Shown here: piece after piece, positions 1-28,559 of the stretch
Layout: the number at the start of each line of letters is the position of its first letter
Position numbering within the stretch: position 1 is the stretch's first letter
From: Escherichia coli
GTDB taxonomy: Bacteria > Pseudomonadota > Gammaproteobacteria > Enterobacterales > Enterobacteriaceae
Length of the DNA: 64,000 bases
NCBI RefSeq assembly: GCF_022846255.1
Contig: NZ_AP025682.1
Reading direction: 5' to 3' (one strand)
Program-made: the position numbers and the translations under genes
The notes under the pieces: generated by a model
Databases searched by the model: none
Told to the model about the DNA's origin: nothing
Seen by the model: the letters and a program-made list of their open reading frames with translations, nothing else

Positions 1-918
1 CTCCACGTGCCAGTGGTTTCGGATTGCTGTGGCGAACTTCTCTGCGGTTAAATCAGCAGAACTGATATAATATCTGACCGTCATTTCTGGCTATTTCTTT
101 TGTTCTGCTATTATGGACCGAAAGGAGACTGCCACGCATAATTTCTTCAGTCCTTTCCATTCAAACGTGAAATCAATAAGTTCATCAGGGACATCGCAAA
201 CAATATGAAGACGGATTTCTTCTCTGCCGTGACTTTTTTCACTAATTGCGTAACTGTCATGCTCTGGATTATTCAATTCTTTCAGCGGAAATTTTTCCTC
301 GAAGGCTTTATTTAGCCGCCCCTGGTTTCCTTTTACAGCGAATAAATAATCACCTCCCTGTTTTTGTATCTTCTCTGCAATATCTTTCTGGCAACCCATC
401 GCATCAGTTGTGATGATTTTTCCTTTAATATCCAGCATGTTAAGAAGTTCAGGGATAGCTGTAATTTCATTGGATTTCTCATCCGTCCTGATCTGTCCGA
501 TGACCAGACTGTGCATTGTTGAGAACGCACTAATGACATGAATCGCTCCCCTGCGGCGACTCTTGTCATAAGAATGTCGGAGCGTTTTTCCATCAATTGC
601 AATAACGTCTTTATCATCTGAAGAATGGCAGTCACGCATCCAGTTAATAAAGCACTCGTGAAATTTTGCAGGACTGATACAGGATACAACTCTGGCAATG
701 GTATCGTGAACAGGAATACCATTTTCAAAATCACCATATTGCTTCAAAAAATCGAGATGTGTTTCCCCAAAATCCTCTATATCTTCCCAGCCTTCTGCAC
801 CAGAAATAACGGCACAAATAGTCAACAGTAGAATATCCGATAATTTATGTTCCACTTTCCAGGCTTGTCTGTAATCGGGGATAATAGAAATATGTTCCAT
901 CAATTTTTTAAGTACCAT
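1..918 (-). mobile_element. ISAs1-family (H-repeat-associated) transposase gene, disrupted: in-frame TAG at 91-93, homologous reading frame continues to the window edge
   Basis: 275-aa [29 protein letters not shown]... matches the N-terminal three-quarters of E. coli H-repeat/ISAs1 transposases. Reverse-complement of 1-90 continues in frame as [30 protein letters not shown] after the stop. Confidence 0.7.
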
Positions 919-1147
919 TTTGTTCTCCTTAATTATGTAAGGAGTATTTGATCATGTATAAGCAATAAAAAACAGCTTCAGGTAATGAGGAATATCTCAA
1001 TTTTTAAACATAAAATGCGAATTATTTAGTACAAAAAAGCAGCGTTACGTGATCTTTCCCTGACTGTGTAGGAAAACAGGTTTCCAAGCCCTTCCGAACC
1101 ATTCATGCCTGCAAACAAAAGCAGCTGCGGCGGCACCGCACTACCAC

Positions 1148-1468
1148 TTACTGTGACGTTATGCGCCCCGGACCACCGGCAGCAAGCGACGCCGCCGCAT
1201 CCTGAACTGCACCAGCCATATCCGAGATCCCTGCTGCTGCAGCGGCAGCCTGCGCAGCAGCTACTGCTGCTTTAACCAGACCTGACGGTTCCGGCAACGC
1301 ACCAAACAGGTCCGCCGCTGCCTGTTCTGCCATCTCCTCGGCGGCACCAGATACATCGGTTACGGCTGAACCTGTGCTCATACCGCCACTTTCGCCAGCT
1401 ATTGGTGGTGTGGTGATGACGGGTCCACCGTTTCCAGCTGGTTTGTTACCCGTAGATACAAAACTCAT
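1148..1468 (-). CDS. hypothetical small Ala/Gly-rich protein (106 aa), no recognisable domain
   Basis: ORF with an AGGA-containing putative RBS upstream of the ATG; low-complexity A/G-rich translation; GC-rich relative to AT-rich flanks; lies just downstream of a putative immunity gene. Confidence 0.3.
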
Positions 1469-1492
1469 GATATTTATTCCTTTAATATCGGA

Positions 1493-1864
1493 TTAGAATT
1501 TAGCGCCCGGCTGCCAGAAAAAATAAGAAATAACCCGCCACTGTCCATCTTTATAATGAAAAAAACATGTCAGATTTAAATCCCCCCGCAAATGCCAAAA
1601 CATTTCTTTGATGGGAATATTTCTGAATTCAGTATTCGTTGAGCGATAGGTGTTTTCAATTTCTATATAATACTCACCGACAAATTTATAACGAGGCTTT
1701 ATAAATTCATACGCTGGCTGACCATAGTTATTTAATAGAACATTCTCTTCAACTCCATTATACACACCACTCGCATTCAGATAAGCATGCCCAGGAATAT
1801 CAGACATGCTATTTTTCGCCCCACCCACTATCAAAAAAATTATCACAGCGTATATTAGTTTCAT
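1493..1864 (-). CDS. putative periplasmic immunity protein (signal peptide), partner of the upstream HExxH protein
   Basis: N-terminal hydrophobic signal-like segment MKLIYAVIIFLIVGGAKN; start overlaps the stop of the upstream gene by 4 nt (translational coupling); no recognised domain. Confidence 0.4.
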   Translation of the reverse strand: MKLIYAVIIFLIVGGAKNSMSDIPGHAYLNASGVYNGVEENVLLNNYGQPAYEFIKPRYKFVGEYYIEIENTYRSTNTEFRNIPIKEMFWHLRGDLNLTCFFHYKDGQWRVISYFFWQPGAKF

Positions 1865-2601
1865 TTTTTTACGCTTTTCACAAAAAAATTAGAACCCGGA
1901 ACCATTCTATTTAACCGCTCAATGACATTTCTCATATAACGAGAGCGCAGTTCCATACCAATATTCATTAACGCACTGGCGTCCCCGGAGAATGGTGTAG
2001 TTGCTTTATCTGCATCATCACTATAGTATTCATCAGCAAGATATCCAATAATATGCCCAAGCTCGTGAGACAGCCCTATTTGCTCATGGCAAACTTTTGA
2101 TGAGCCAAGACATTTAGCTGCTGCAACTATATCTTTAGAGTCAAGTTCAACGTATCGACTATTCCAGACAATGGAACTCTGTCGAAAACTATTTGGATCA
2201 TCATTATCAATTTTAAACACCACCACATCCCAATACCCATGACGATCAGTCTGAATTATTTCTATTGAGAAAGATAAATCCTTACCATTAAACTTACTGG
2301 CAAACTCAGACTTCCCAGAAACGGATAAAAAAATCTTATTATTCCATGTTTGATTAATGACAAAAATAACTTTCCCATGAAAGGCATTTTTCTCCAAATC
2401 TGTCCAGTCAGTTTTTGCATCCCATCTTTTTATCCAATTATATTTCCATCTCAGCAACAATGAGATTGCACCATTTTCACGGTCAATTCTTAAATCTCCC
2501 CAGGCATCATTGTCCCTGATATATCGTTTATCCAGCATTAAGTCGTCATAAGCATCGTATGCCTGCTGAATAGCTTCATCATGAGAGTCACCCATGTTCA
2601 C
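1861..2601 (-). CDS. putative zinc-metallopeptidase-like protein (HExxH motif), candidate T6SS effector
   Basis: 246-aa ORF with strong RBS (AAGGAGG) and motif SHELGHIIGYLADEY; no signal peptide; followed by an overlapping signal-peptide ORF; located in the effector-rich tail of the T6SS island. Confidence 0.4.
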   Translation of the reverse strand: MNMGDSHDEAIQQAYDAYDDLMLDKRYIRDNDAWGDLRIDRENGAISLLLRWKYNWIKRWDAKTDWTDLEKNAFHGKVIFVINQTWNNKIFLSVSGKSEFASKFNGKDLSFSIEIIQTDRHGYWDVVVFKIDNDDPNSFRQSSIVWNSRYVELDSKDIVAAAKCLGSSKVCHEQIGLSHELGHIIGYLADEYYSDDADKATTPFSGDASALMNIGMELRSRYMRNVIERLNRMVPGSNFFVKSVKK

Positions 2602-2801
2602 CTCCTTATATTGCTATATATCCAATAAACCTGAAGATGCTTGCTTACCCACCAACGCAGACGGGACCAAGGGTAGCCTGAAGTCAACAGATAGCAGTCA
2701 ACTTGAAGTTCATGGGGATATTTGTTTCCCCATCTACACGTTTATCGTCATATTTTTGTATAGCTATTCTCAGCATTCGTGGGTAGATTATTTTTTTCCA
2801 A

Positions 2802-2906
2802 CCGCAGCGCATCCACATACCGCCCCTCGCTGTTCTGCTGCCACAACCAGCCCTGCCCCTGCTGCGCCTGCGTTAACATTTTTGCTAGCCAGCACGGTCA
2901 CGGCAG
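2802..2906 (-). repeat. degenerate ~105-bp copy of the 3' end of tagF (direct repeat of 3902-4007)
   Basis: Read by eye: ccgcagcgcatccacataccgcccctcgctgttctgctgccacaaccagccctgcccctgctgcgcctgcg... aligns with 3902-4007 at roughly 90% identity; the copy lacks the tagF stop context and sits between two effector/immunity modules. Confidence 0.8.
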
Positions 2907-2924
2907 GCAATTCCATGACAGGTA

Positions 2925-3398
2925 CTACTCATCCGTACAACCCAGCCCCCGGCGCTGAACCACTTCACTGGCAAACGTAGCTCCGGTTTTTTTCATTATT
3001 CCTTTTTGTATTTTTTGCAGCGCGGGAAATGAGATTCTCCTGCATGAATCCTCTTCCCATATATCACCAGTTACAGGACTAACTGAAAATAGTCCCCACA
3101 CATCTGTCGCTCCGGCGGAAGGAGAATCATAACCTACCCCAAAACTAAAATACCCAGGATGATACAGGTTACCTTTTTTATCTTTCAGAGAACCGTCAAG
3201 AAAAAACCCAGACAATTCCACATTATATTTTTCATTTTTTAGTGAAAAAACCAATAATGCCTGCGCCTGTATTTCAGTAAGACCTGACTGGTTAACAGTC
3301 GTTAGATCAAACCGCGGCACATTCCTGATAAGAATTTCAGCACAACAATTCACGGACACGACCATGAAAAGCAATACTGATATTAATTTACAGGACAT
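2925..3398 (-). CDS. putative periplasmic immunity protein (signal peptide) for the upstream GH73-like protein
   Basis: N-terminal signal-like segment MSCKLISVLLFMVVSVNCCA; overlaps the upstream gene by 16 nt; no recognised domain. Confidence 0.4.
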   Translation of the reverse strand: MSCKLISVLLFMVVSVNCCAEILIRNVPRFDLTTVNQSGLTEIQAQALLVFSLKNEKYNVELSGFFLDGSLKDKKGNLYHPGYFSFGVGYDSPSAGATDVWGLFSVSPVTGDIWEEDSCRRISFPALQKIQKGIMKKTGATFASEVVQRRGLGCTDE

Positions 3399-3853
3399 GT
3401 TATTCTCCGCTTAACCATATTAATCACCCACACTAACTCACTAGCATAACCGGTATGGCCGCCATTACTGTTTTTACCTGAATTAAAACCAGAATCAATC
3501 AATGCCTGCGCAAATTGCTCCGGAGATTTTTTATTTCTGACCGCATTACCAAATCGGATTGCAAAGGACTTTCCGCTAGTTGAAAAAAAGGTATAAGTGG
3601 CAACCCACACTTGATTACTCCCCAGCGGGTGAACCTGTCCTGACTGTAAAGGTGCCGGACCATGCATGGAAAAGTAGTTATTGTATTCTGTCGCGATTCT
3701 ACCCTGCCCGTAAAAGGACTCCTTTGCAGCAAGCCCCAGGATATTTTCCACAGGCACATCAAGTTGCTTAGCGATTAATTCACATTCTTTCAGATATTGC
3801 TGTACAAACCTGACTGCACCAGTGTTATTACAGGCTTTATCATAAGACCCCAT
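3383..3853 (-). CDS. GH73-like (FlgJ-type) N-acetylglucosaminidase-like protein, candidate peptidoglycan-targeting T6SS effector
   Basis: 156 aa, no signal peptide, RBS AAGGAG; motif LGLAAKESFYGQG...YNNYFSMHG resembles the GH73 catalytic region (AQAALESGWG...NNLFGIK) recalled from memory; immediately downstream of tagF. Confidence 0.45.
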   Translation of the reverse strand: MGSYDKACNNTGAVRFVQQYLKECELIAKQLDVPVENILGLAAKESFYGQGRIATEYNNYFSMHGPAPLQSGQVHPLGSNQVWVATYTFFSTSGKSFAIRFGNAVRNKKSPEQFAQALIDSGFNSGKNSNGGHTGYASELVWVINMVKRRITCPVN

Positions 3854-3880
3854 GATTCACTACTCCTTGTCTGATTATTT

Positions 3881-4651
3881 TTAATGCGGCCGGATATCCA
3901 GCCGCAACGCATCCACATACCGCCCCTCGCTGTTCTGCTGCCAGAACCAGCCCTGCCCCTGCTGCGCCTGCGTCAGCATTTTGTCCGGCCAGCCCGGCCA
4001 CGGCAGGTGGCGCACACCGGGCAGTTCCACTACCGGCACGTCCGGCAGGCCGGTGAGTTCCCGGCTACGCTGCGGTACACGTCGTAAGCCGCGTAGCCAC
4101 TGCGCCCAGCGCGGCCCCGGTCGCCACATCGCCCAGAGCTGGTCTGTCTGCTCCGCCAGTCGACCGCAGCGTTCTGTCTGTGGTGAGACATGAGCTGCCG
4201 TCAACTGCGCCAGCCAGTACAGCCAGCCCTGTGTGTCATCCAGGCTCTCTTCCAGCCATTCCCGCCCGACACGCTGGTAAATCACCAGTGGCCACGGCCT
4301 GCCCGTACTGTCACGCGAGGCGGTCAGGACCCCGGTCAGCCACTCATCGCGCCCGCCAATGGGGAGAAATCCCGGCGACAGCACAAAACTCCACGGCAAT
4401 GGGTGGTGCTCCGGTAGTGCCGTTTTCTCACGTGGTGACAGGTGCATCCAGCCGTCATTTGTTCCGGCCTTCGCAGCATCCGTTCCTTCCGGCAGAACAA
4501 TATGCCGTCCCTGTCCCAGCCACGTTTGCTGGTTCAGCCACGCCTGCCACACCTGCCCTTCGTTCGCGCTCACTCGCCAGCGCACATAGTCCCGCTGGTC
4601 CGGCAGTCTGCCGAACATCGCCGGGGCCGATATCTCTGCCCGGCGCATCAC
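3881..4651 (-). CDS. tagF: T6SS-associated protein TagF (ImpM family)
   Basis: N-terminal FGRLPDQRDYVRW matches the TagF signature (FGKLPxxGDFVxR); W-rich, GC-rich ORF downstream of the tssM/tae4 block. True start may be the internal Met of AMFGRLP. Confidence 0.6.
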   Translation of the reverse strand: MMRRAEISAPAMFGRLPDQRDYVRWRVSANEGQVWQAWLNQQTWLGQGRHIVLPEGTDAAKAGTNDGWMHLSPREKTALPEHHPLPWSFVLSPGFLPIGGRDEWLTGVLTASRDSTGRPWPLVIYQRVGREWLEESLDDTQGWLYWLAQLTAAHVSPQTERCGRLAEQTDQLWAMWRPGPRWAQWLRGLRRVPQRSRELTGLPDVPVVELPGVRHLPWPGWPDKMLTQAQQGQGWFWQQNSEGRYVDALRLDIRPH

Positions 4652-4836
4652 AACGTCCTTACCGGACAGGTGAAGTTTTTCAGCAATTCCCGGTAATACA
4701 GAACATAATTCTTCATTTCAATAATAAAGTCAGATATCAGGATTAATTTTCTTCCACAGGAATCAGAGCATTTATAATAAAATCGCTCAGGCATCCCCCC
4801 AACAAAGAGAACAGGAATCAGCTTCCAATAAAATTG

Positions 4837-5313
4837 TTAATTCAGTTCCCAGAACCAGATTTCCTTGCAGCTAAAATAGCAATGTGAATGACATATAGCA
4901 CCTGTGGTAGAAGGCTCAATAAGATCTATATGACCGCCACCGTAACCCGTAATTTTCCAGAAAAAGACCACTCCTCTTTTATTACTGGTGTCTGTTTTAA
5001 ATTTTTCTGAGTCACACCAGATAACTGGTCTTCCAAAAACATCAGCTCGGGAAAGCTGATCTGCCAGTAATTTCGCACCGGTTTCTATTTTCTTCCCTTT
5101 CCAGTCACCACTTTTGATCGTCAGTCGCCCGTTAAAGCTGACGCCTGATTTAATCAGCGCCAGACTCATACGTGTGGCACAGGTATTTACATAACCAGCA
5201 TTTTGCTGTTGCAGTGCTTCATAGTTATAACCCACTTCACTGTACAAAACATCACCATCAATCTGAACTGATGAGTAATGGTTTTTTTTAAGTGTGAAAA
5301 ATGAAGGTTTCAT
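4837..5313 (-). CDS. tae4: Tae4-family peptidoglycan amidase effector
   Basis: 158 aa; motif NTCATRMSLALIKSG matches the Tae4 catalytic Cys region (NACPIRMSYVLN) and GGGHIDL the His region, by recall of Salmonella/Enterobacter Tae4; no signal peptide; start overlaps the stop of the upstream signal-peptide gene. Confidence 0.65.
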   Translation of the reverse strand: MKPSFFTLKKNHYSSVQIDGDVLYSEVGYNYEALQQQNAGYVNTCATRMSLALIKSGVSFNGRLTIKSGDWKGKKIETGAKLLADQLSRADVFGRPVIWCDSEKFKTDTSNKRGVVFFWKITGYGGGHIDLIEPSTTGAICHSHCYFSCKEIWFWELN

Positions 5314-6005
5314 TTATTATTTCCTTTATCACAGGAGTGTTTACTTAGTGCCTCAATAATAATATTTGCAGCCCGTTCATTCAGTTTATCTGACGTTTTT
5401 TTTCTGAAATACCAGTAAATAATCTCATCCAGTGTAACTGTTTTAATCGTTTTATAATCGCACCATGTTTTTCTTTCCGTGGCATCTTCTATACCCAAAA
5501 GATAGATTTTCGCATTAAGCCTATCCTGCCTGTTATCTGACTGCCAGAAGCGGAAAAAATCATCTCCGTTCAGATCGAACGCGCCAGAGGTCAGGTGTGA
5601 AACAGATGAATGCCGGGGAGATTTTTTTTCCGGTGATGCCATATCCGGGCAGGGAAACAGCCTGACCATCGCTTGTTCAATCAGAGTTGAAGCTCGCATA
5701 TTCATATCGTTAACCGACTGCTGATTAAGATATGTCAGTACCGATGAATAAAGTTCTATTTCATTAATCTTATTATATCCACACCAGGTTTTACTTTCTG
5801 TCGCATCACTCACACCAAGGACATACATCAGAACATTTTCTTTTTCCTGTGACGTTCCACGAGCATAAAATGACAAAAATTCCTGCGCACTGAGATTAAT
5901 ATAATCGGGGTCAATAGTTCCTGTGTTTTTTCTGATATCAGCAAAAACATTTCCTGACATGGCATATAACAAAAAAATAATAAAAAAACGCGTATATTGT
6001 TGCAT
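5310..6005 (-). CDS. tai4: Tai4-like periplasmic immunity protein, internally tandem-duplicated (two homologous domains)
   Basis: Signal peptide MQQYTRFFIIFLLYAMSGNVFA; the two halves are visibly homologous (…VLMYVLGVSDATESKTWCGYNKI… versus …KIYLLGIEDATERKTWCDYKTI…); 4-nt overlap with tae4. Confidence 0.5.
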   Translation of the reverse strand: MQQYTRFFIIFLLYAMSGNVFADIRKNTGTIDPDYINLSAQEFLSFYARGTSQEKENVLMYVLGVSDATESKTWCGYNKINEIELYSSVLTYLNQQSVNDMNMRASTLIEQAMVRLFPCPDMASPEKKSPRHSSVSHLTSGAFDLNGDDFFRFWQSDNRQDRLNAKIYLLGIEDATERKTWCDYKTIKTVTLDEIIYWYFRKKTSDKLNERAANIIIEALSKHSCDKGNNK

Positions 6006-6251
6006 ATCATGCTTCCTGAATCACGGTAGTAGGATGGTCGCTATAACGTCGGTTTAAGAAAGTTTATAGTTTTGTTGCGTCGTTGCCCTGCCATCTCAGT
6101 ATATAAGTGACATTAATGGTGCCTTTTTGCTCACCTGGTGTAACGGCCTGTTTTAGCATACAACTCCACGTCAAGACATCCGTGAATGCAGCCTTTAGCA
6201 TAGTCACATGGGTCCGGTAGTCTGCCAACGATACTGCCGCCGCCCGGCGTA

Positions 6252-9200
6252 TCACAGCGCTCGCTCCGGGCAGGCGAAGCGTTGTAATAGTCCGCGATCC
6301 ACTGGGTCAAAATCCCGTCCGGCGGTGATTTCCAGTATCACCCGCCGCCCGTCAAAGCTGTACTCCACCTGCTGTGTTCCCCGTACCGCCGTTTCTTGCG
6401 CTTTTCCCGCATCCAGCAGGTGAAACAGCGCCCACGGTCCATTAGTCAGCAGCGTCGAGGTGTCCTGGCGGATGCGCGGGCTGGCGGTTATTTCCGCCAT
6501 TGAGCCGTTGCGCGGACCCGGCCAGTTCACTTTCAGCGGCCTGACCGGGCCGTGAGCGTAACGCAGTACCTGGCCGTCAATGTCAATCACCAGTTCGGTG
6601 ATGGCCGGGTCCATATCCACGACGCGGACCTGCATCGCCCATGAGAACTTTTTCCCTCCGTCGCCGTTAAAAAACACGCTGCGGATCTGTTTCGCCTCCT
6701 GAAACGGCGTCAGGTCTGGACCCTGTAAGGTCATGTTGCCTTCGGTCGGTTTGTAGCGCCACGGGTTGCTGGCGGTATCCGCCAGTGGGGCCAGTTGCTT
6801 CGTCCAGAAGGCATCCAGCACGCCGCCGCTGGCAAAGATACGGTTAAAATCGTCCGCGCTGACCTCCTGCGGGCTGTCGGTGAAGGGGTAGCGCCCGTCG
6901 ATGGCGTCGCGGCACTCATCACCGATCACCGCCTCCATCTGCGCGTTCAGCACTTCACCGGTGCCGGCGTTGATTTTTCGCGTTCCCTGCTGCGTGAGAT
7001 CCAGCAGAATATTTTTCAGCGGCGCGGGCAGTTTTGCCGCCTCCAGTTGCAGTTTATCCGCCGCAGAAATGCGCCCCGGCAGAGTGCTCGCAGCCAGCGC
7101 ACTGTCGGCAATGGTGAGCTGGGTGTAGTACTCATTGAGCATCGTCAGCAGCGAATTTAATTGCGGCACGCCGCCGCCCTGCCCGCTGTCCGTCTGCCCG
7201 GAAACCACTTCCCGCAGGGCGGCGAAACGGTCATCCACCAGTGATTTTTCCAGCCGCTCTTCCGGGTGAATGTCCTGCAACAGCTTCGCCGTCTGCACCG
7301 CTTTTCCCGCATTGCCGGAGAGCCGGTCCTGCGCGCGCTGGGCCATCTGCTTTTGTCTGGCCTGCGCATTCAGCGGCGGCACCAGCGTGGTCTGCTCCAC
7401 CACCGCTTTACTCAGGCGCATCAGCGGGGAATCCGGCGAGGCCAGAGTACGCAGCACCTGAAGGTCATACGCTAGTCCAGGGCTACCGTCCTCCCCGGCG
7501 CTGTTGATGCTGTGAATGCTTGCCAGAAAATCCTGCCATCGGCGAGCATATTCAGCCAGGTACAGACGACGTACCTCACGGGTAACCGGGAGTTCCTGCC
7601 CCGGCAACTGGCTCATCACAATATCAGTCGTTTTTTTTTGCGCACTTTCCCGGCCCATCACCCAGGCGTCGTCCGCTGATGCGGCGGCGACAAACTCCGA
7701 CAGCCGTTTGTCGAACAGTTCCCGGTAGCCTTCGCGGGTGAAGATGCCGGGCACGCCCCTGTCCAGCGGCGCGCCATCCGTGCGGACAAAAACTGTTCCC
7801 GCATCCGCGCCCACAGCGCGAACCAGCGAAAACTCCTGCGGTGCTTCGCTCTCCATGGAAGCCAGGGCTCGAGTGTAGATACGCTCAGTGCTGGTATGGC
7901 CGTCAAGGAAGGCCCGCGCCTGGCGGATCAGCCCCTCATCTTTTTCCCAGGGCGAATGCACCACGCGGCTGCCGTCAAACAGGGCGTCAATATGCTCCAG
8001 CACGGCTGCGCGACCGCCAAACTCCGCTACGCTGTCGCGGTTGTCCAGATCGTTCAGCACCCAGGCGTGGATCTCCGCCGCGTTGTATTTGTCCTCGTGG
8101 TCCTTATCGAGGTTCAGCAGCAGATAAACATGCAGGGCGTCATAGGCGGCTTTGCTGTCCTGACGCGCAATCGCATCTGAAAGCACGTATTCCATTCGTT
8201 TCACCAGCGGAGGGAGCAGTAGCTGGTCCAGCAGGCGGTCATACAGGGATGCGACACTCTCCATCACCGGCGGGACGCTGTAAAGACCATAACGCCAGGC
8301 CAGCGGCGGCGAGTCCGGGTCCAGCCCCGGCCAGGCAGAGAGCGCCCGCGCCTGGTTCAGCAGGGCCGGAACAGGCTGCATAGCAGGTTTTCCGGTATAG
8401 GCTTTGACATCACCATCCAGTTGGGTCGTCCGGCTGGCGATTTCATTCAGATAACCGCTGTTACCCTGCTGGCTACCCTGCATTCCCTGCCACAACCAGA
8501 AAGCCAGCGCCAATACCAGCAGATGCCCGCCGGTACGCAGCAGGCGATAACGCCAGGCCCATTGAAGATTCGGCTCCACCAGGTGCGCTTCGCGGAAGAT
8601 AAACTGCGTCAGTAGATCGTGCAGGAAATAGCTGCGGTTGCCGTCCGGCAGGGTATGGGATGGGGAATCCGCCTTCCCTTTGATCGCCCGGACAAAACGC
8701 TGCCAGATGCCCGTCTGATCGGCCACCGCGTCTGCCTGCGCCTGCGCGGCACTGGTGAAAAATACGCCGCGCAGGGTGTTGTTAAGCTGGGTAGCATCAA
8801 ATTTTGAATCGAGGAAAATCTGTTCAATAGCTTCCAGCAGCGGCGCACCCAGCGCGGCAAATTCACGCGGGAAGCGGTAGAGCCGCTGACGGCTTTTAAG
8901 GTCATATTCTTCCTGCAACCGGGTATCCAGCCCCTGATCCAGCCGCTGTGTCAGGTTTGCCAGTTCCCGGCCACAGAGCGCATGCAGCGACTGCGGATCG
9001 CTGGCGTGACGCCTGCGGCTGTAAGGCAGGGTGAAGCCCCAGACCTGGGCTCGCAGGTGACTGGTCAACCCACGGAAATACTCCGTAAAGCCCGGCAGCA
9101 GATCCATCTTGGTGACAACCAGATAGACCGGAAAACGAATGCCCAGCGTCTCCCGCAGTTCCGCCAGCCGCGCACGCAGAGCTGCACAGGCAGCCAGCCG

Positions 9201-10118
9201 TTCCGCCGGGGACTGCGCGGTCAGATCCGCCACGTTCAGCGTCAGGATCACGCCGTTGAGCGGTGCGCCGGGGCGGTGTTTACGCAGCAGTCCCAGAAAC
9301 CCCTGCCACTCCCCGGCGTTGCGCTGGGTCGCGCTGATTTCGCCACCGTCATCGTGGCGAGCATAGCGCCCGGCGGTGTCAATAAGCACTGCTTCGTTGG
9401 TAAACCACCAGTCGCAGTGCAGCGTGCCGCCGCCCGGCACGGTGAGAATATGCGCGGTTTGCTCCATCTGCTCCGCCAGCGGAAACTGTAGCCCGGTGTT
9501 AAGCAGCGCGGTGGTTTTACCATCGCCGGGGCTGCCGATAACCATAAACCACGGCAGCTCGTACAGAAAACGCTTTCCTTCCAGGACTTTTCGCCAGCCA
9601 GGAAGATCCACACGCAGTTGTTTCAGTTGCCGGATGGCGCGGTTGACAATATGGCTGACGGTACGCAGGTCGGCTTTAATTTCCCCCTCCACCGGTACGT
9701 CTTCCCCACGCGGATGCAGGAAACGGCGCAGCAGTTGTTCATCCAGACGCAGCGCCCGCCACAGCCGGTACAGGCCATACAGCGCATAAGTCAGCAGGAT
9801 CAGACCGATAAGCGTCAGACGCAGCCACAGCGGCGCAAATGGATGAACATCACCGAGGGACAGCAGGGGTGAAACAAAACCGATGACCAGGCACAGAACC
9901 GTCACGCCAATGATGCTCATCGACCAGTTAACCAGCCACAGTGCGAGGAACATCAGTAACAGAACGATGGTGACTACCCGACTTCCCACAGACGCGAGCG
10001 GATGCACGGTGTCAAACGCCACCAGCGGCCCGATAAACCAGACCAGCAGCGCCAGTACCGCCACGCCGACAACAGCCAGCGCGCGGCGGGAAAACAGCAG
10101 ACTGAGAAATTTTTGCAT
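6252..10118 (-). CDS. tssM: T6SS membrane core protein TssM (IcmF family)
   Basis: 1288 aa; N-terminal transmembrane segments, Walker A GSPGDGKTT, large periplasmic C-terminal region; typical IcmF architecture. Confidence 0.9.
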   Translation of the reverse strand: MQKFLSLLFSRRALAVVGVAVLALLVWFIGPLVAFDTVHPLASVGSRVVTIVLLLMFLALWLVNWSMSIIGVTVLCLVIGFVSPLLSLGDVHPFAPLWLRLTLIGLILLTYALYGLYRLWRALRLDEQLLRRFLHPRGEDVPVEGEIKADLRTVSHIVNRAIRQLKQLRVDLPGWRKVLEGKRFLYELPWFMVIGSPGDGKTTALLNTGLQFPLAEQMEQTAHILTVPGGGTLHCDWWFTNEAVLIDTAGRYARHDDGGEISATQRNAGEWQGFLGLLRKHRPGAPLNGVILTLNVADLTAQSPAERLAACAALRARLAELRETLGIRFPVYLVVTKMDLLPGFTEYFRGLTSHLRAQVWGFTLPYSRRRHASDPQSLHALCGRELANLTQRLDQGLDTRLQEEYDLKSRQRLYRFPREFAALGAPLLEAIEQIFLDSKFDATQLNNTLRGVFFTSAAQAQADAVADQTGIWQRFVRAIKGKADSPSHTLPDGNRSYFLHDLLTQFIFREAHLVEPNLQWAWRYRLLRTGGHLLVLALAFWLWQGMQGSQQGNSGYLNEIASRTTQLDGDVKAYTGKPAMQPVPALLNQARALSAWPGLDPDSPPLAWRYGLYSVPPVMESVASLYDRLLDQLLLPPLVKRMEYVLSDAIARQDSKAAYDALHVYLLLNLDKDHEDKYNAAEIHAWVLNDLDNRDSVAEFGGRAAVLEHIDALFDGSRVVHSPWEKDEGLIRQARAFLDGHTSTERIYTRALASMESEAPQEFSLVRAVGADAGTVFVRTDGAPLDRGVPGIFTREGYRELFDKRLSEFVAAASADDAWVMGRESAQKKTTDIVMSQLPGQELPVTREVRRLYLAEYARRWQDFLASIHSINSAGEDGSPGLAYDLQVLRTLASPDSPLMRLSKAVVEQTTLVPPLNAQARQKQMAQRAQDRLSGNAGKAVQTAKLLQDIHPEERLEKSLVDDRFAALREVVSGQTDSGQGGGVPQLNSLLTMLNEYYTQLTIADSALAASTLPGRISAADKLQLEAAKLPAPLKNILLDLTQQGTRKINAGTGEVLNAQMEAVIGDECRDAIDGRYPFTDSPQEVSADDFNRIFASGGVLDAFWTKQLAPLADTASNPWRYKPTEGNMTLQGPDLTPFQEAKQIRSVFFNGDGGKKFSWAMQVRVVDMDPAITELVIDIDGQVLRYAHGPVRPLKVNWPGPRNGSMAEITASPRIRQDTSTLLTNGPWALFHLLDAGKAQETAVRGTQQVEYSFDGRRVILEITAGRDFDPVDRGLLQRFACPERAL

Positions 10119-10445: not shown

Positions 10446-10901
10446 TCAAAATTCTCTGGATAGAATAATATAGCCATTGAATCTTACGGAACACTCATTT
10501 TCATTAATAAGGCCGGATGCAATAAAAACATCTTTCCCTCTGTCATTGTTAATATAGGTATATTTTGCCACAATAGACTTGGCATGATTTTCATAGTAGC
10601 TATCAAAATACGATTTTTCATCTAACATTGCCTTCTTATTTCTGGCTTTGTCCTTCTCATAATCAATCTTAGCCAGAGACTCTGCATAAAACTTAGACAC
10701 AGGAGAAACATCAAGAACTTCTACCCTTGTTTTATCTCTTAAAATAGTAGAAGAATTTATATTCAAATCACTTTTCATTGCATCAAATAACGACAACTCT
10801 ATTGAGGCTCCAACCGTAGCGCAACCATCATTTTGTGCATATGAAATTGCAGGTATGCCAGCTAACAGGCAGATTATTACCTTGAACATATTAGTCCTCA
10901 A
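10446..10901 (-). CDS. putative periplasmic immunity protein (Tldi-like) for the upstream L,D-transpeptidase-like effector
   Basis: 151 aa with signal peptide MRTNMFKVIICLLAGIPAISYA; AT-rich; overlaps the effector gene end by 11 nt. Confidence 0.45.
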   Translation of the reverse strand: MRTNMFKVIICLLAGIPAISYAQNDGCATVGASIELSLFDAMKSDLNINSSTILRDKTRVEVLDVSPVSKFYAESLAKIDYEKDKARNKKAMLDEKSYFDSYYENHAKSIVAKYTYINNDRGKDVFIASGLINENECSVRFNGYIILSREF

Positions 10902-11259
10902 CCACTAATATTTTATCAGTACTGGCAGCAATAACCTTGCGATAAGGTAAATCCAGAATTATACAGCCATCAGAGGCTTCTCCTGGATGGGCTGAACTCT
11001 CTCCGTGTATCATGAAACCGTCACGCCCGCACATTTGATTTTCGGGGTAAGGCGTGAGCCTCATCGTCCATGCTCTTGTTCTGGCATGAAAAAATGCAAG
11101 TCCAATTGTATATGTACCTCTTGGCAATGGTCCCTTATCTCTTACACACTCATTAACAGAGTCATCTTTAAAACCCGGTCTGCCAGAATATCTGGCATTG
11201 AACTGATAGCTACCATTTAAATAAAATGAACGTGCATTAATTTTGTATACCCAAGGCAT
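10891..11259 (-). CDS. Tlde1-like (DUF2778, L,D-transpeptidase-fold) T6SS effector
   Basis: 122 aa; motifs KGPLPRGTYTIG and FMIHGESSAHPGEASDGCIIL match the His-x(14-17)-S-x-G-C signature described for Tlde1/YkuD-like effectors; no signal peptide. Confidence 0.55.
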   Translation of the reverse strand: MPWVYKINARSFYLNGSYQFNARYSGRPGFKDDSVNECVRDKGPLPRGTYTIGLAFFHARTRAWTMRLTPYPENQMCGRDGFMIHGESSAHPGEASDGCIILDLPYRKVIAASTDKILVVED

Positions 11260-24418: not shown

Positions 24419-26302
24419 ATGGATCCACGGCTACTGGAATACTACAACCGCGAACTGAGCTATCTGCGGGAAACGGGAGCCGAATTTGCCGCCCGTCATC
24501 CTAAAGTCGCCGCCCGACTGGGTATGCAGGGAACGGATATTGCCGATCCGTATGTGGAGCGAATGGTCGAGGCCTTCAGCTTCCTGACCGCCCGCACGCA
24601 GCTAAAAATTGACGCTGAATTCCCCCGTTTCACCCAGCGTCTGCTGGAAGTGGTCAGCCCCAATTACGTCACACCCACGCCCTCAATGAGCGTGGCGCAG
24701 CTTCATCCCGATCCGGAAGAAGGCGATCTGGCGAAGGGATTCACCGTCCCGCGCAACACGGCCTTTTTTTCCGCCATTCCGGAAGGCGAAAGTACCGCCT
24801 GCCAGTTTCGTAGCAGCCAGAATGTGACGCTGTGGCCGCTTGCCATCGAAGAGGTGCGGCTGACCGCCGCGCCGCCGGATATGCCTGCCCTGCACCGCTA
24901 CCTGCCAGCCAACATTCACGTCGCTGGTGCGCTGCGTATTACCCTGCGCACCTTTGGTGAACTGACGTTCAGTCAGCTTGCAGGGCTGAACAAGCTGCCA
25001 TTTTATCTCTGCGGCGAGGAGCGCACGGCCTCACACCTGTTCGAACTACTGCATACCAGCGCCATCGCGAGCCTGGCTGGCATTCCGGGGCATTTTGACG
25101 GCGCACTGGATGTGAATCTGAAACAGCCCGTTATGTACGAAGGCCTGGATCCGGATCAGGGACTGTTGCCGCTGGCGTGGAATGTGTTTCACGGCCATAA
25201 CCTGCTACATGAATATTTTACCTGTCCGGAACGCTTCTTTTTTTTCACCCCGACAGGCCTGTCTGACGGGTTACAGAAAATTAACGGCGGCGTGGCGGAG
25301 ATTGTTATCCTGCTGAACCGCCTGCCGCCGGACTGGCTGATCCACCAGACAAACGCGGCACAGTTCAGCCTGTTCTGTACCCCGGTTATCAACCTGTTTC
25401 CCCGCGTCGCCGCCCGGATCGATGTCACGCACAGCACGACGGAACAGCATCTGGTGGTGGACAGAACCCATCCGCTGGATTATGAGGTGTTCTCGGTCCA
25501 AGAAGTGGAAGGGCTGGAAACTGACACCACACGGAAGATGGCCTTTCGCCCGCTCTACCACACCCGCAATAATGATGAAGGCAATCACGGACGTTATTTT
25601 TCCCTGCGCCGGGAGCCGCGCCGGTTGTCGGAAAATGCCCGCCGCTATGGCACCCGCACCTCCTATACAGGATCAGAAGTGTTCCTGTCGCTGGTTGACC
25701 AGTATGAAGCGCCGTACCCGGAAAATCTGCGCCATATCACCATCACGGCTATGGTCACCAACCGCGATCTGCCCTGTCTTATTGCCCGCAATGGACGGGA
25801 CGATCTGACCGTGGATGCGGCCATCCCGGTGGCGGGTGTGGGGCTTATCCGTCCGCCGCGTCCGCCGCAGCCTCCGCTGGCTGAACGTGAAATGGCCTGG
25901 CGGTTGATCCGCCAGTTATCCTTTAACTATCTGCCGCTGGCCGATCTGGATCACCGTACCGGTGGTCAGGCGCTGCGCGATCTGCTTAACCTGTTTATTC
26001 CGGCGCATGACAGTCCGCAGTCGCGCCAGGTGCGCAGCCTGATTGGCTGCAACACCACCCCGGTCACCCGCCGTCTGCCCGGTTCCGGGCTGCTGGTCTA
26101 TGGGCGCGGCGTCAGTTGTGAACTGACCGTGGATGAGGAGGGGTTCTCCGGTATCAGTCCGTATCTGTTCGGTCTGGTGTTGGAGCACTATATCGCCCGT
26201 CATGTTTCCATTAATACCTTCTCGCAGATGACGCTGCACAGCATGCAGCGCGGCAAAATTATGACCTGGCCTGCCAGGACGGGACAGCGGGGAAGCGTAT
26301 GA
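24419..26302 (+). CDS. tssF: T6SS baseplate protein TssF
   Basis: 627 aa; N-terminus MDPRLLEYYNRELSYLRETGAEFAARHPKVAARLG is the TssF signature. Confidence 0.85.
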   Translation: MDPRLLEYYNRELSYLRETGAEFAARHPKVAARLGMQGTDIADPYVERMVEAFSFLTARTQLKIDAEFPRFTQRLLEVVSPNYVTPTPSMSVAQLHPDPEEGDLAKGFTVPRNTAFFSAIPEGESTACQFRSSQNVTLWPLAIEEVRLTAAPPDMPALHRYLPANIHVAGALRITLRTFGELTFSQLAGLNKLPFYLCGEERTASHLFELLHTSAIASLAGIPGHFDGALDVNLKQPVMYEGLDPDQGLLPLAWNVFHGHNLLHEYFTCPERFFFFTPTGLSDGLQKINGGVAEIVILLNRLPPDWLIHQTNAAQFSLFCTPVINLFPRVAARIDVTHSTTEQHLVVDRTHPLDYEVFSVQEVEGLETDTTRKMAFRPLYHTRNNDEGNHGRYFSLRREPRRLSENARRYGTRTSYTGSEVFLSLVDQYEAPYPENLRHITITAMVTNRDLPCLIARNGRDDLTVDAAIPVAGVGLIRPPRPPQPPLAEREMAWRLIRQLSFNYLPLADLDHRTGGQALRDLLNLFIPAHDSPQSRQVRSLIGCNTTPVTRRLPGSGLLVYGRGVSCELTVDEEGFSGISPYLFGLVLEHYIARHVSINTFSQMTLHSMQRGKIMTWPARTGQRGSV

Positions 26303-28482: not shown

Positions 28483-28559
28483 TGGCGGAACGGACGGGAC
28501 TCGAACCCGCGACCCCCTGCGTGACAGGCAGGTATTCTAACCGACTGAACTACCGCTCC
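28483..28559 (-). tRNA. aspV: tRNA-Asp (GUC)
   Basis: Reverse complement reads GGAGCGGTAGTTCAGTCGGTTAGAATACCTGCCTGTCACGCAGGGGGTCGCGGGTTCGAGTCCCGTCCGTTCCGCCA; adjacent to dnaQ as in E. coli. Confidence 0.92.

Follow-up and report, generated by a model that had tools for sequence, protein, structure and literature searches.

Defective H-repeats are a textbook feature of Escherichia coli K-12. At the 3' side of the K-12 rhsC gene lie ybfQ, which is truncated, ybfL, which is an annotated pseudogene, and ybfD, which is partial. The RhsC-linked ybfL retains a full-length H-rpt frame of 378 codons that is broken by a single in-frame stop. The genome paper on E. coli W notes that H-rpt elements are associated with the C-terminal tips of rhs genes and that their transposition has not been observed (PMC3032704). 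The H-repeat described here lies at the left edge of the window, the stretch of 64,000 nucleotides of E. coli DNA that was analysed, and resembles ybfL in having one in-frame stop in an otherwise open frame. The stop is located at codon 276, compared with codon 18 in ybfL, and the locus is an aspV-linked type VI secretion system (T6SS) island instead of RhsC. The whole reading, namely an ISEc1 copy with a G>T amber change at codon 276 and a dead transposase, situated beside the aspV T6SS island, is assigned a probability of about 0.85. The lesion itself is an ordinary one, a known kind of inactivation in a known E. coli element. The features at this end of the window are as follows.

1..1062, minus strand: ISEc1/H-rpt element (ISAs1 family), the first 1062 of 1291 bp, from alignment to copies.
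1..90, minus strand: codons 277-306, open to base 1 and identical to intact proteins.
91..93, minus strand: amber codon TAG in place of GAG (Glu276), from alignments to intact copies.
91..918, minus strand: truncated transposase ORF of 275 codons plus TAG, from the ORF list, the translation and the coverage of the Pfam and NF033564 profiles.
925..930, minus strand: ribosome-binding site AAGGAG, 6 nt 5' of the ATG, read directly and kept in all copies aligned.
1051..1062 (read 1062-1051), minus strand: transposase-proximal terminal inverted repeat CAGGGAAAGATC, the same terminus as in all copies compared.
1063..1468, minus strand: 5' remnant of vgrG, 135 codons, cut by the IS end after ...CCTACACAGT, from alignment to AR_0077.
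1166..1169, minus strand: G4 run where relatives have G5, a 1-nt deletion that frameshifts the vgrG remnant, from alignment to AR_0077.

Sequences matching the element DNA occur in 5,342 of 5,426 complete E. coli genomes, at a median of five places per genome, and the matched places are annotated as 'ISAs1-like element ISEc1 family transposase' (ydcC, yhhI). Over 1000 nt, the window DNA reaches up to 98.5% identity with annotated ISEc1 copies, and two intact copies align with the element in every column. Pfam analysis of the translated frame returns DDE_Tnp_1_assoc (5e-34) followed by DDE_Tnp_1 (2e-23), in the order that is typical of the ISAs1 family, and the NCBIfam equivalog model for ISAs1 family transposases, NF033564, matches the truncated product with E=1e-91 and 307 bits, where the cut-off is 70 bits. 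By its sequence, then, window 1-1062 is one copy of ISEc1, the H-repeat of the ISAs1 family, with agreement well above what chance could give. Eight complete copies measure 1291 bp with termini CAGGGAAAGAT...ATCTTKCCCTG, and about 229 nt of the ISEc1 3' end fall beyond the left edge of the window. None of these eight copies is flanked by direct repeats, which do not, as a result, separate insertion from deletion. The terminal repeat CAGGGAAAGATC is followed by a 'B-type' variant of positions 14-25, ACGTAACGCTGCT; 1,236 complete-genome records match this B-type end at 99% or better over 51 nt. The ydcC and yhhI copies of ISEc1/H-rpt are like the window copy in their terminal repeat, ribosome-binding site, start codon and single-ORF layout, and share with it the association with vgrG or rhs loci. 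The window copy differs from them by TAG for GAG at codon 276 and by a private missense change, E2V.

The minus-strand frame across window 1-918 comprises 306 codons, and its sole stop is the TAG of codon 276 (window 93-91); the two remaining minus-strand frames of this segment are full of stops. The listed ORF (91..918) begins with an ATG at 918-916 and encodes 275 amino acids. All 30 of the 30 codons past the TAG specify residues 277-306 of the intact 378-residue ISEc1/H-rpt transposase, and every intact copy aligned has GAG at codon 276. The ydcC copy of strain JBEHAAB-19-0176 is intact, with 378 residues and Glu at position 276; the two copies differ at this codon only as GAG and TAG, and their downstream DNA is identical to the window edge. 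An initial sequence-only reading had described an ORF that ends at an in-frame TAG at 91-93 while the frame runs on to the edge of the window, and had taken the TAG for a nonsense mutation instead of a natural gene end. The translation of the 306 codons agrees with the former statement, and the alignment to intact ISAs1 transposases that it had proposed as a check bears out the latter. Because the intact homologues have 378 residues and GAG at codon 276, a nonsense mutation is supported over a natural end; a sense codon in homologues together with a conserved downstream frame is the pattern of a nonsense pseudogene. The placement of the feature at 1-918 holds for the stop and the frame, while the gene lies on the minus strand and the element extends beyond 918 to 1062. 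On the coding strand the change is a G>T at window base 93, and a single such transversion would convert codon 276 from GAG to TAG and end translation after 275 residues.

The 275-residue product contains PF13808 (DDE_Tnp_1_assoc) at residues 8-94, and PF01609 (DDE_Tnp_1) at residues 102-223 only. The latter match covers positions 3-130 of the 200 in the profile, whereas in intact proteins it reaches residue 341. Similarly, the product covers positions 1-243 of the 314 in NF033564, to residue 269, compared with 1-314 in an intact relative; in intact proteins the model spans residues 29-344. The HWHVEN motif corresponds to codons 302-307, past the stop, with codon 307 outside the window. Its Glu (codon 306, window 1-3) is the putative catalytic E of the DDE triad, as the C1 (YREK-type) region of IS4-like DDE transposases holds the catalytic Glu (PMC2266710) and the PF01609 match reaches residue 341. 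No solved structure for any ISAs1 transposase relative is present in the PDB. The uninterrupted ORF with all three catalytic regions that marks an active DDE transposase is absent from this copy. Since the stop comes before the C-terminal third of the DDE domain, where the putative catalytic Glu lies, the truncated product should be catalytically dead. It retains DDE_Tnp_1_assoc and the beginning of the catalytic domain but would lack the DDE Glu, so that no active transposase would be made; with its DDE triad incomplete, the product should at best bind DNA. The loss of activity may alter little in practice, as H-rpt transposition has reportedly never been observed (PMC3032704). As the terminus inside the window is undamaged, other genomic copies could in principle mobilise the element in trans. 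The element could also serve as a homology patch for recombination.

Among ten other copies compared, five substitutions are private to the window copy, three of them synonymous, the others being E2V and E276*; those besides the stop lie at IS positions 149, 486, 597 and 789. No second disabling lesion is present across the 306 codons. Because there are only five private substitutions and no further lesion, the inactivation looks recent. Further disrupted H-rpt copies were met in L004, L005, L019 and L040.

The amber allele is rare. None of the 13,143 places found in 4,993 genomes matches the 61-mer spanning the stop at 100%, and the sequence of the window copy recurs in none of the approximately 13,000 copies of the 5,426 complete E. 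coli genomes. TAG-bearing 35-, 34- and 22-mers have no match in GTDB species representatives or JGI metagenome contigs, and the exact 275-residue product is absent from indexed assemblies (153 billion gene positions). A TAG-centred 41-mer was found by megablast, whose seeding requires an exact 28-base word that necessarily spans the TAG, in five of the 5,426 complete genomes. All five matches represent one decayed ISAs1 pseudogene between wcaL and galF, in the colanic acid/O-antigen region (L004/L005 4020-4828), carried by strains CP131_Sichuan, B379 and three others. It has GAG>TAG at codon 276 and the B-type left end in common with the window copy, but it occupies another locus, carries several frameshifts and about 65 substitutions (approximately 6% divergence), and differs in its haplotype around the stop.

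A single contig, L030 (ENA ERZ929318, k127_11549), reads through the element. It is derived from a metagenome assembly and is colinear with window 1-9468, with one mismatch in the 8,406 nt outside the IS. Its IS is complete at 1291 bp and has 22 mismatches to the window, all at IS positions 405-970. L030 encodes a transposase of 378 residues that was found in no other contig. The short contigs L037-L039, from similar assemblies, switch to variants of other copies about 130-150 nt into the repeat. The interior of the L030 IS may have been assembled from a mixture of several copies, or gene conversion may have taken place in one lineage or the other. Its intact ORF was considered as evidence for an intact orthologue and was discounted, the product being unique to that metagenome contig.

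The near-identical L030 reads GAG at codon 276, which is what would be expected if the TAG were a sequencing or assembly artefact, produced by mis-threaded repeats or a consensus error, in a gene that is really intact. A multi-copy repeat, with the median number of places given above, is where assemblies are least reliable, and the adjacent G4/G5 homopolymer difference is of an error-prone type. A G>T substitution, however, is atypical of homopolymer errors, and the four other private substitutions fit a real, diverging copy. The G4 difference, at least, is real, as the exact 106-residue product of the frameshifted vgrG ORF (1148-1468) recurs in 20 other, independent public contigs. The L030 IS interior is itself suspect, and its GAG neither proves an intact orthologue nor refutes the TAG of the window. 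An artefact is thus considered unlikely. The identical substitution at the same codon in the wcaL-galF copy of five genomes would alternatively suggest that the amber allele was gained by gene conversion, or by descent from an older defective H-rpt lineage. The mosaic nature of H-rpt copies is in line with conversion, as exemplified by the window and L030 copies, which differ in block 405-970 and have identical flanks. The two TAG-bearing copies nevertheless have no common haplotype around the stop: they differ at IS positions 943, 948 and 963, and the wcaL-galF copy has indels just past the stop, at columns 998 and 1012 of the multi-copy alignment. A special 'B-lineage' joining the two was also considered and rejected, since the variants that they have in common, the B-type end and 912A, are frequent in intact copies as well. 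Given the number of substitutions in the wcaL-galF copy, the chance that one of them coincides with one of the five private changes of the window copy is estimated at about 0.1. Conversion or descent from this lineage accordingly seems quite improbable, and the TAG of the wcaL-galF copy is probably a homoplasy that arose independently.

Truncated transposases act as inhibitors in other IS families, as in the case of Tn5 Inh and IS1 InsA. With this precedent, and with the DDE_Tnp_1_assoc domain, start codon and ribosome-binding site intact, the truncation might be functional, the 275-residue protein inhibiting or regulating H-rpt transposition, or the TAG might be read through. Against this, the allele is essentially unique: the indexed assemblies hold no record of its exact product, and no other intact-looking copy carries the TAG; this lack of conservation gives no sign of selection, and a functional truncation is scarcely credible. 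Hardly less speculative is the broader idea of a regulatory amber H-rpt, whose DNA-binding 275-residue product would damp H-rpt, or of a non-autonomous variant that would be mobilised in trans, which we consider very improbable. If it were true, the wcaL-galF TAG would represent the spread of a defective lineage and not a coincidence. An apparently recent, private nonsense mutation in a single ISEc1 copy remains the preferred reading.

The left end of the IS abuts the vgrG remnant, an arrangement that qualifies the element as an Rhs/VgrG-associated H-repeat. The junction between vgrG and the IS is identical in at least eight independent assemblies among the matches listed (L030, L031, L034-L039), and it is absent from complete E. 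coli genomes. In L033, which encodes the same 106-residue product, the site is empty and the vgrG sequence runs on past the junction point; the empty-site alleles L033, L006, L014 and L020 all continue with vgrG after the same point. Because the same junction occurs in eight independent assemblies, it is real and present in a lineage that has been sampled repeatedly in metagenomes and sequencing runs. The sequence-only reading had expected an Rhs or VgrG module just beyond the window. This expectation is only partly borne out: the vgrG remnant and the whole T6SS cluster are found inside the window, from 1063 onward, and an rhs tail does lie beyond the edge, in L030 only.

Beyond the right end of the IS, L030 (9698-11123) contains the 3'-terminal 28 nt of an rhs gene, GGGCCTCAAGGAACC..., with no continuation of vgrG. 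The rhs tail is followed by two ORFs (85-115 and 100 amino acids, both without a Pfam match), then by a symE-like gene and by another H-rpt, whose terminus is CATGG. The same module is found at the pptA/ydcC Rhs locus in about 70 complete genomes; the junction of the IS with the rhs tail is absent from complete genomes. The L030 arrangement is either a real rearrangement that joins two loci or a repeat-mediated misassembly. If L030 is correct, the element marks a deleted or rearranged vgrG-dcrB-rhs module and not a simple insertion, with only rhs debris and another H-rpt beyond it; we would give even odds on this account of the sequence outside the window.

In relatives, the island ends with genes for the 244- and 123-residue proteins described below, VgrG (737 residues), DcrB, PAAR/Rhs (1368 residues) and an immunity protein, followed by an H-rpt (378 residues) in the same orientation, yafV and ivy. 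In some of them, such as AR_0077, a vgrG fragment is instead joined to the final ~80 nt of an H-rpt, and a second VgrG-DcrB-Rhs module comes next. The cut in vgrG, with fusion to the H-rpt transposase end, is at about codon 258-306 in L001 5560-5640 (AR_0077), L014, L015 and L023. Because other strains have the same vgrG cut at these different codons, H-rpt-associated breakpoints inside vgrG are, on these alignments, recurrent and independent.

In the window, the IS left end lies at codon 135 of an already frameshifted vgrG remnant; the rhs tail is at its right end in L030 only. Since the left end abuts the vgrG remnant and the right end abuts the rhs tail in L030, an H-rpt-associated deletion or rearrangement may have removed the vgrG-dcrB-rhs effector module that is present in relatives. 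The H-repeat would then mark the site from which the terminal VgrG-DcrB-Rhs effector module of the T6SS-1 island has disappeared in this lineage, and would constitute another case of H-repeats at rhs/vgrG rearrangement breakpoints. For annotation, the gene is best labelled as a pseudogene of the ISEc1 transposase that contains an internal stop, and the 106-residue ORF as a vgrG remnant. The lesion is of little importance beyond annotation, and its interest for the strain lies in the context.

A simple deletion, with the window copy as the orthologue of the resident H-rpt next to yafV, was also considered and is unsupported, as 23-27 of 1037 sites differ. The yafV-adjacent copies also have an end structure unlike that of the window copy, in which a complete 'A-type' element is immediately preceded by a solo 'B-type' left end of 25 nt (CAGGGAAAGATCACGTAACGCTGCT). 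This H-rpt is nested in the debris of an older copy in L006, L008 and L017 (around L006 17966-19300). In L006 and L008, though not in L017, part of the IS 3' end is repeated (GGGGAGCGGGCTTTCGTAGT) after the right terminus.

The window is a segment of the E. coli chromosome with rrnH, metNIQ and gmhB at about 36-46 kb. The T6SS-1 island fills window 1-28.4 kb, next to the tRNA-Asp gene aspV at 28483-28559, and the vgrG remnant and IS form the distal end of this aspV-linked type VI secretion island. TagF is encoded in the island, which also contains the following genes.

2925-3853, minus strand: glucosaminidase/Tgi2PP effector/immunity pair.
4837-6005, minus strand: Tae4/Tai4 (Rap1a) effector/immunity pair.
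6252-10118: tssM, within the T6SS-1 island.

The two effector/immunity pairs are neighbours. No complete E. coli genome covers 80% or more of window 919-6000. This segment is mosaic, made up of two island types and being in succession 99.7% AR_0077-like, 97% L020-like and 99.4% AR_0077-like.

ARAGORN calls a 94-nt 'tRNA-His' at 26085-26178 (plus strand), inside a T6SS ORF of 627 amino acids (24419-26302). Rfam finds no tRNA at 26085-26178, and the call is probably a false positive.

Directly upstream of vgrG, window 1493-2601 (minus strand) encodes a 244/246-residue HExxH protein (SHELGHIIGY) and then a 123-residue protein with an N-terminal hydrophobic segment. Neither has a match in Pfam, and the sole PDB match, to a snake-venom metalloproteinase, is non-significant (E=0.5). 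The two genes are conserved in many T6SS-1 islands and may encode an unannotated metallopeptidase effector/immunity pair.

Between tssL and tssM, window 10446-11259 (minus strand) contains an ORF of 122 amino acids and, downstream of it, one of 147-151 amino acids. The syntenic 122-residue product of relatives, on which the scan was performed, matches the Pfam domain Tlde1_dom, an L,D-transpeptidase-like effector domain. These two ORFs would be a third putative effector/immunity pair of the island.
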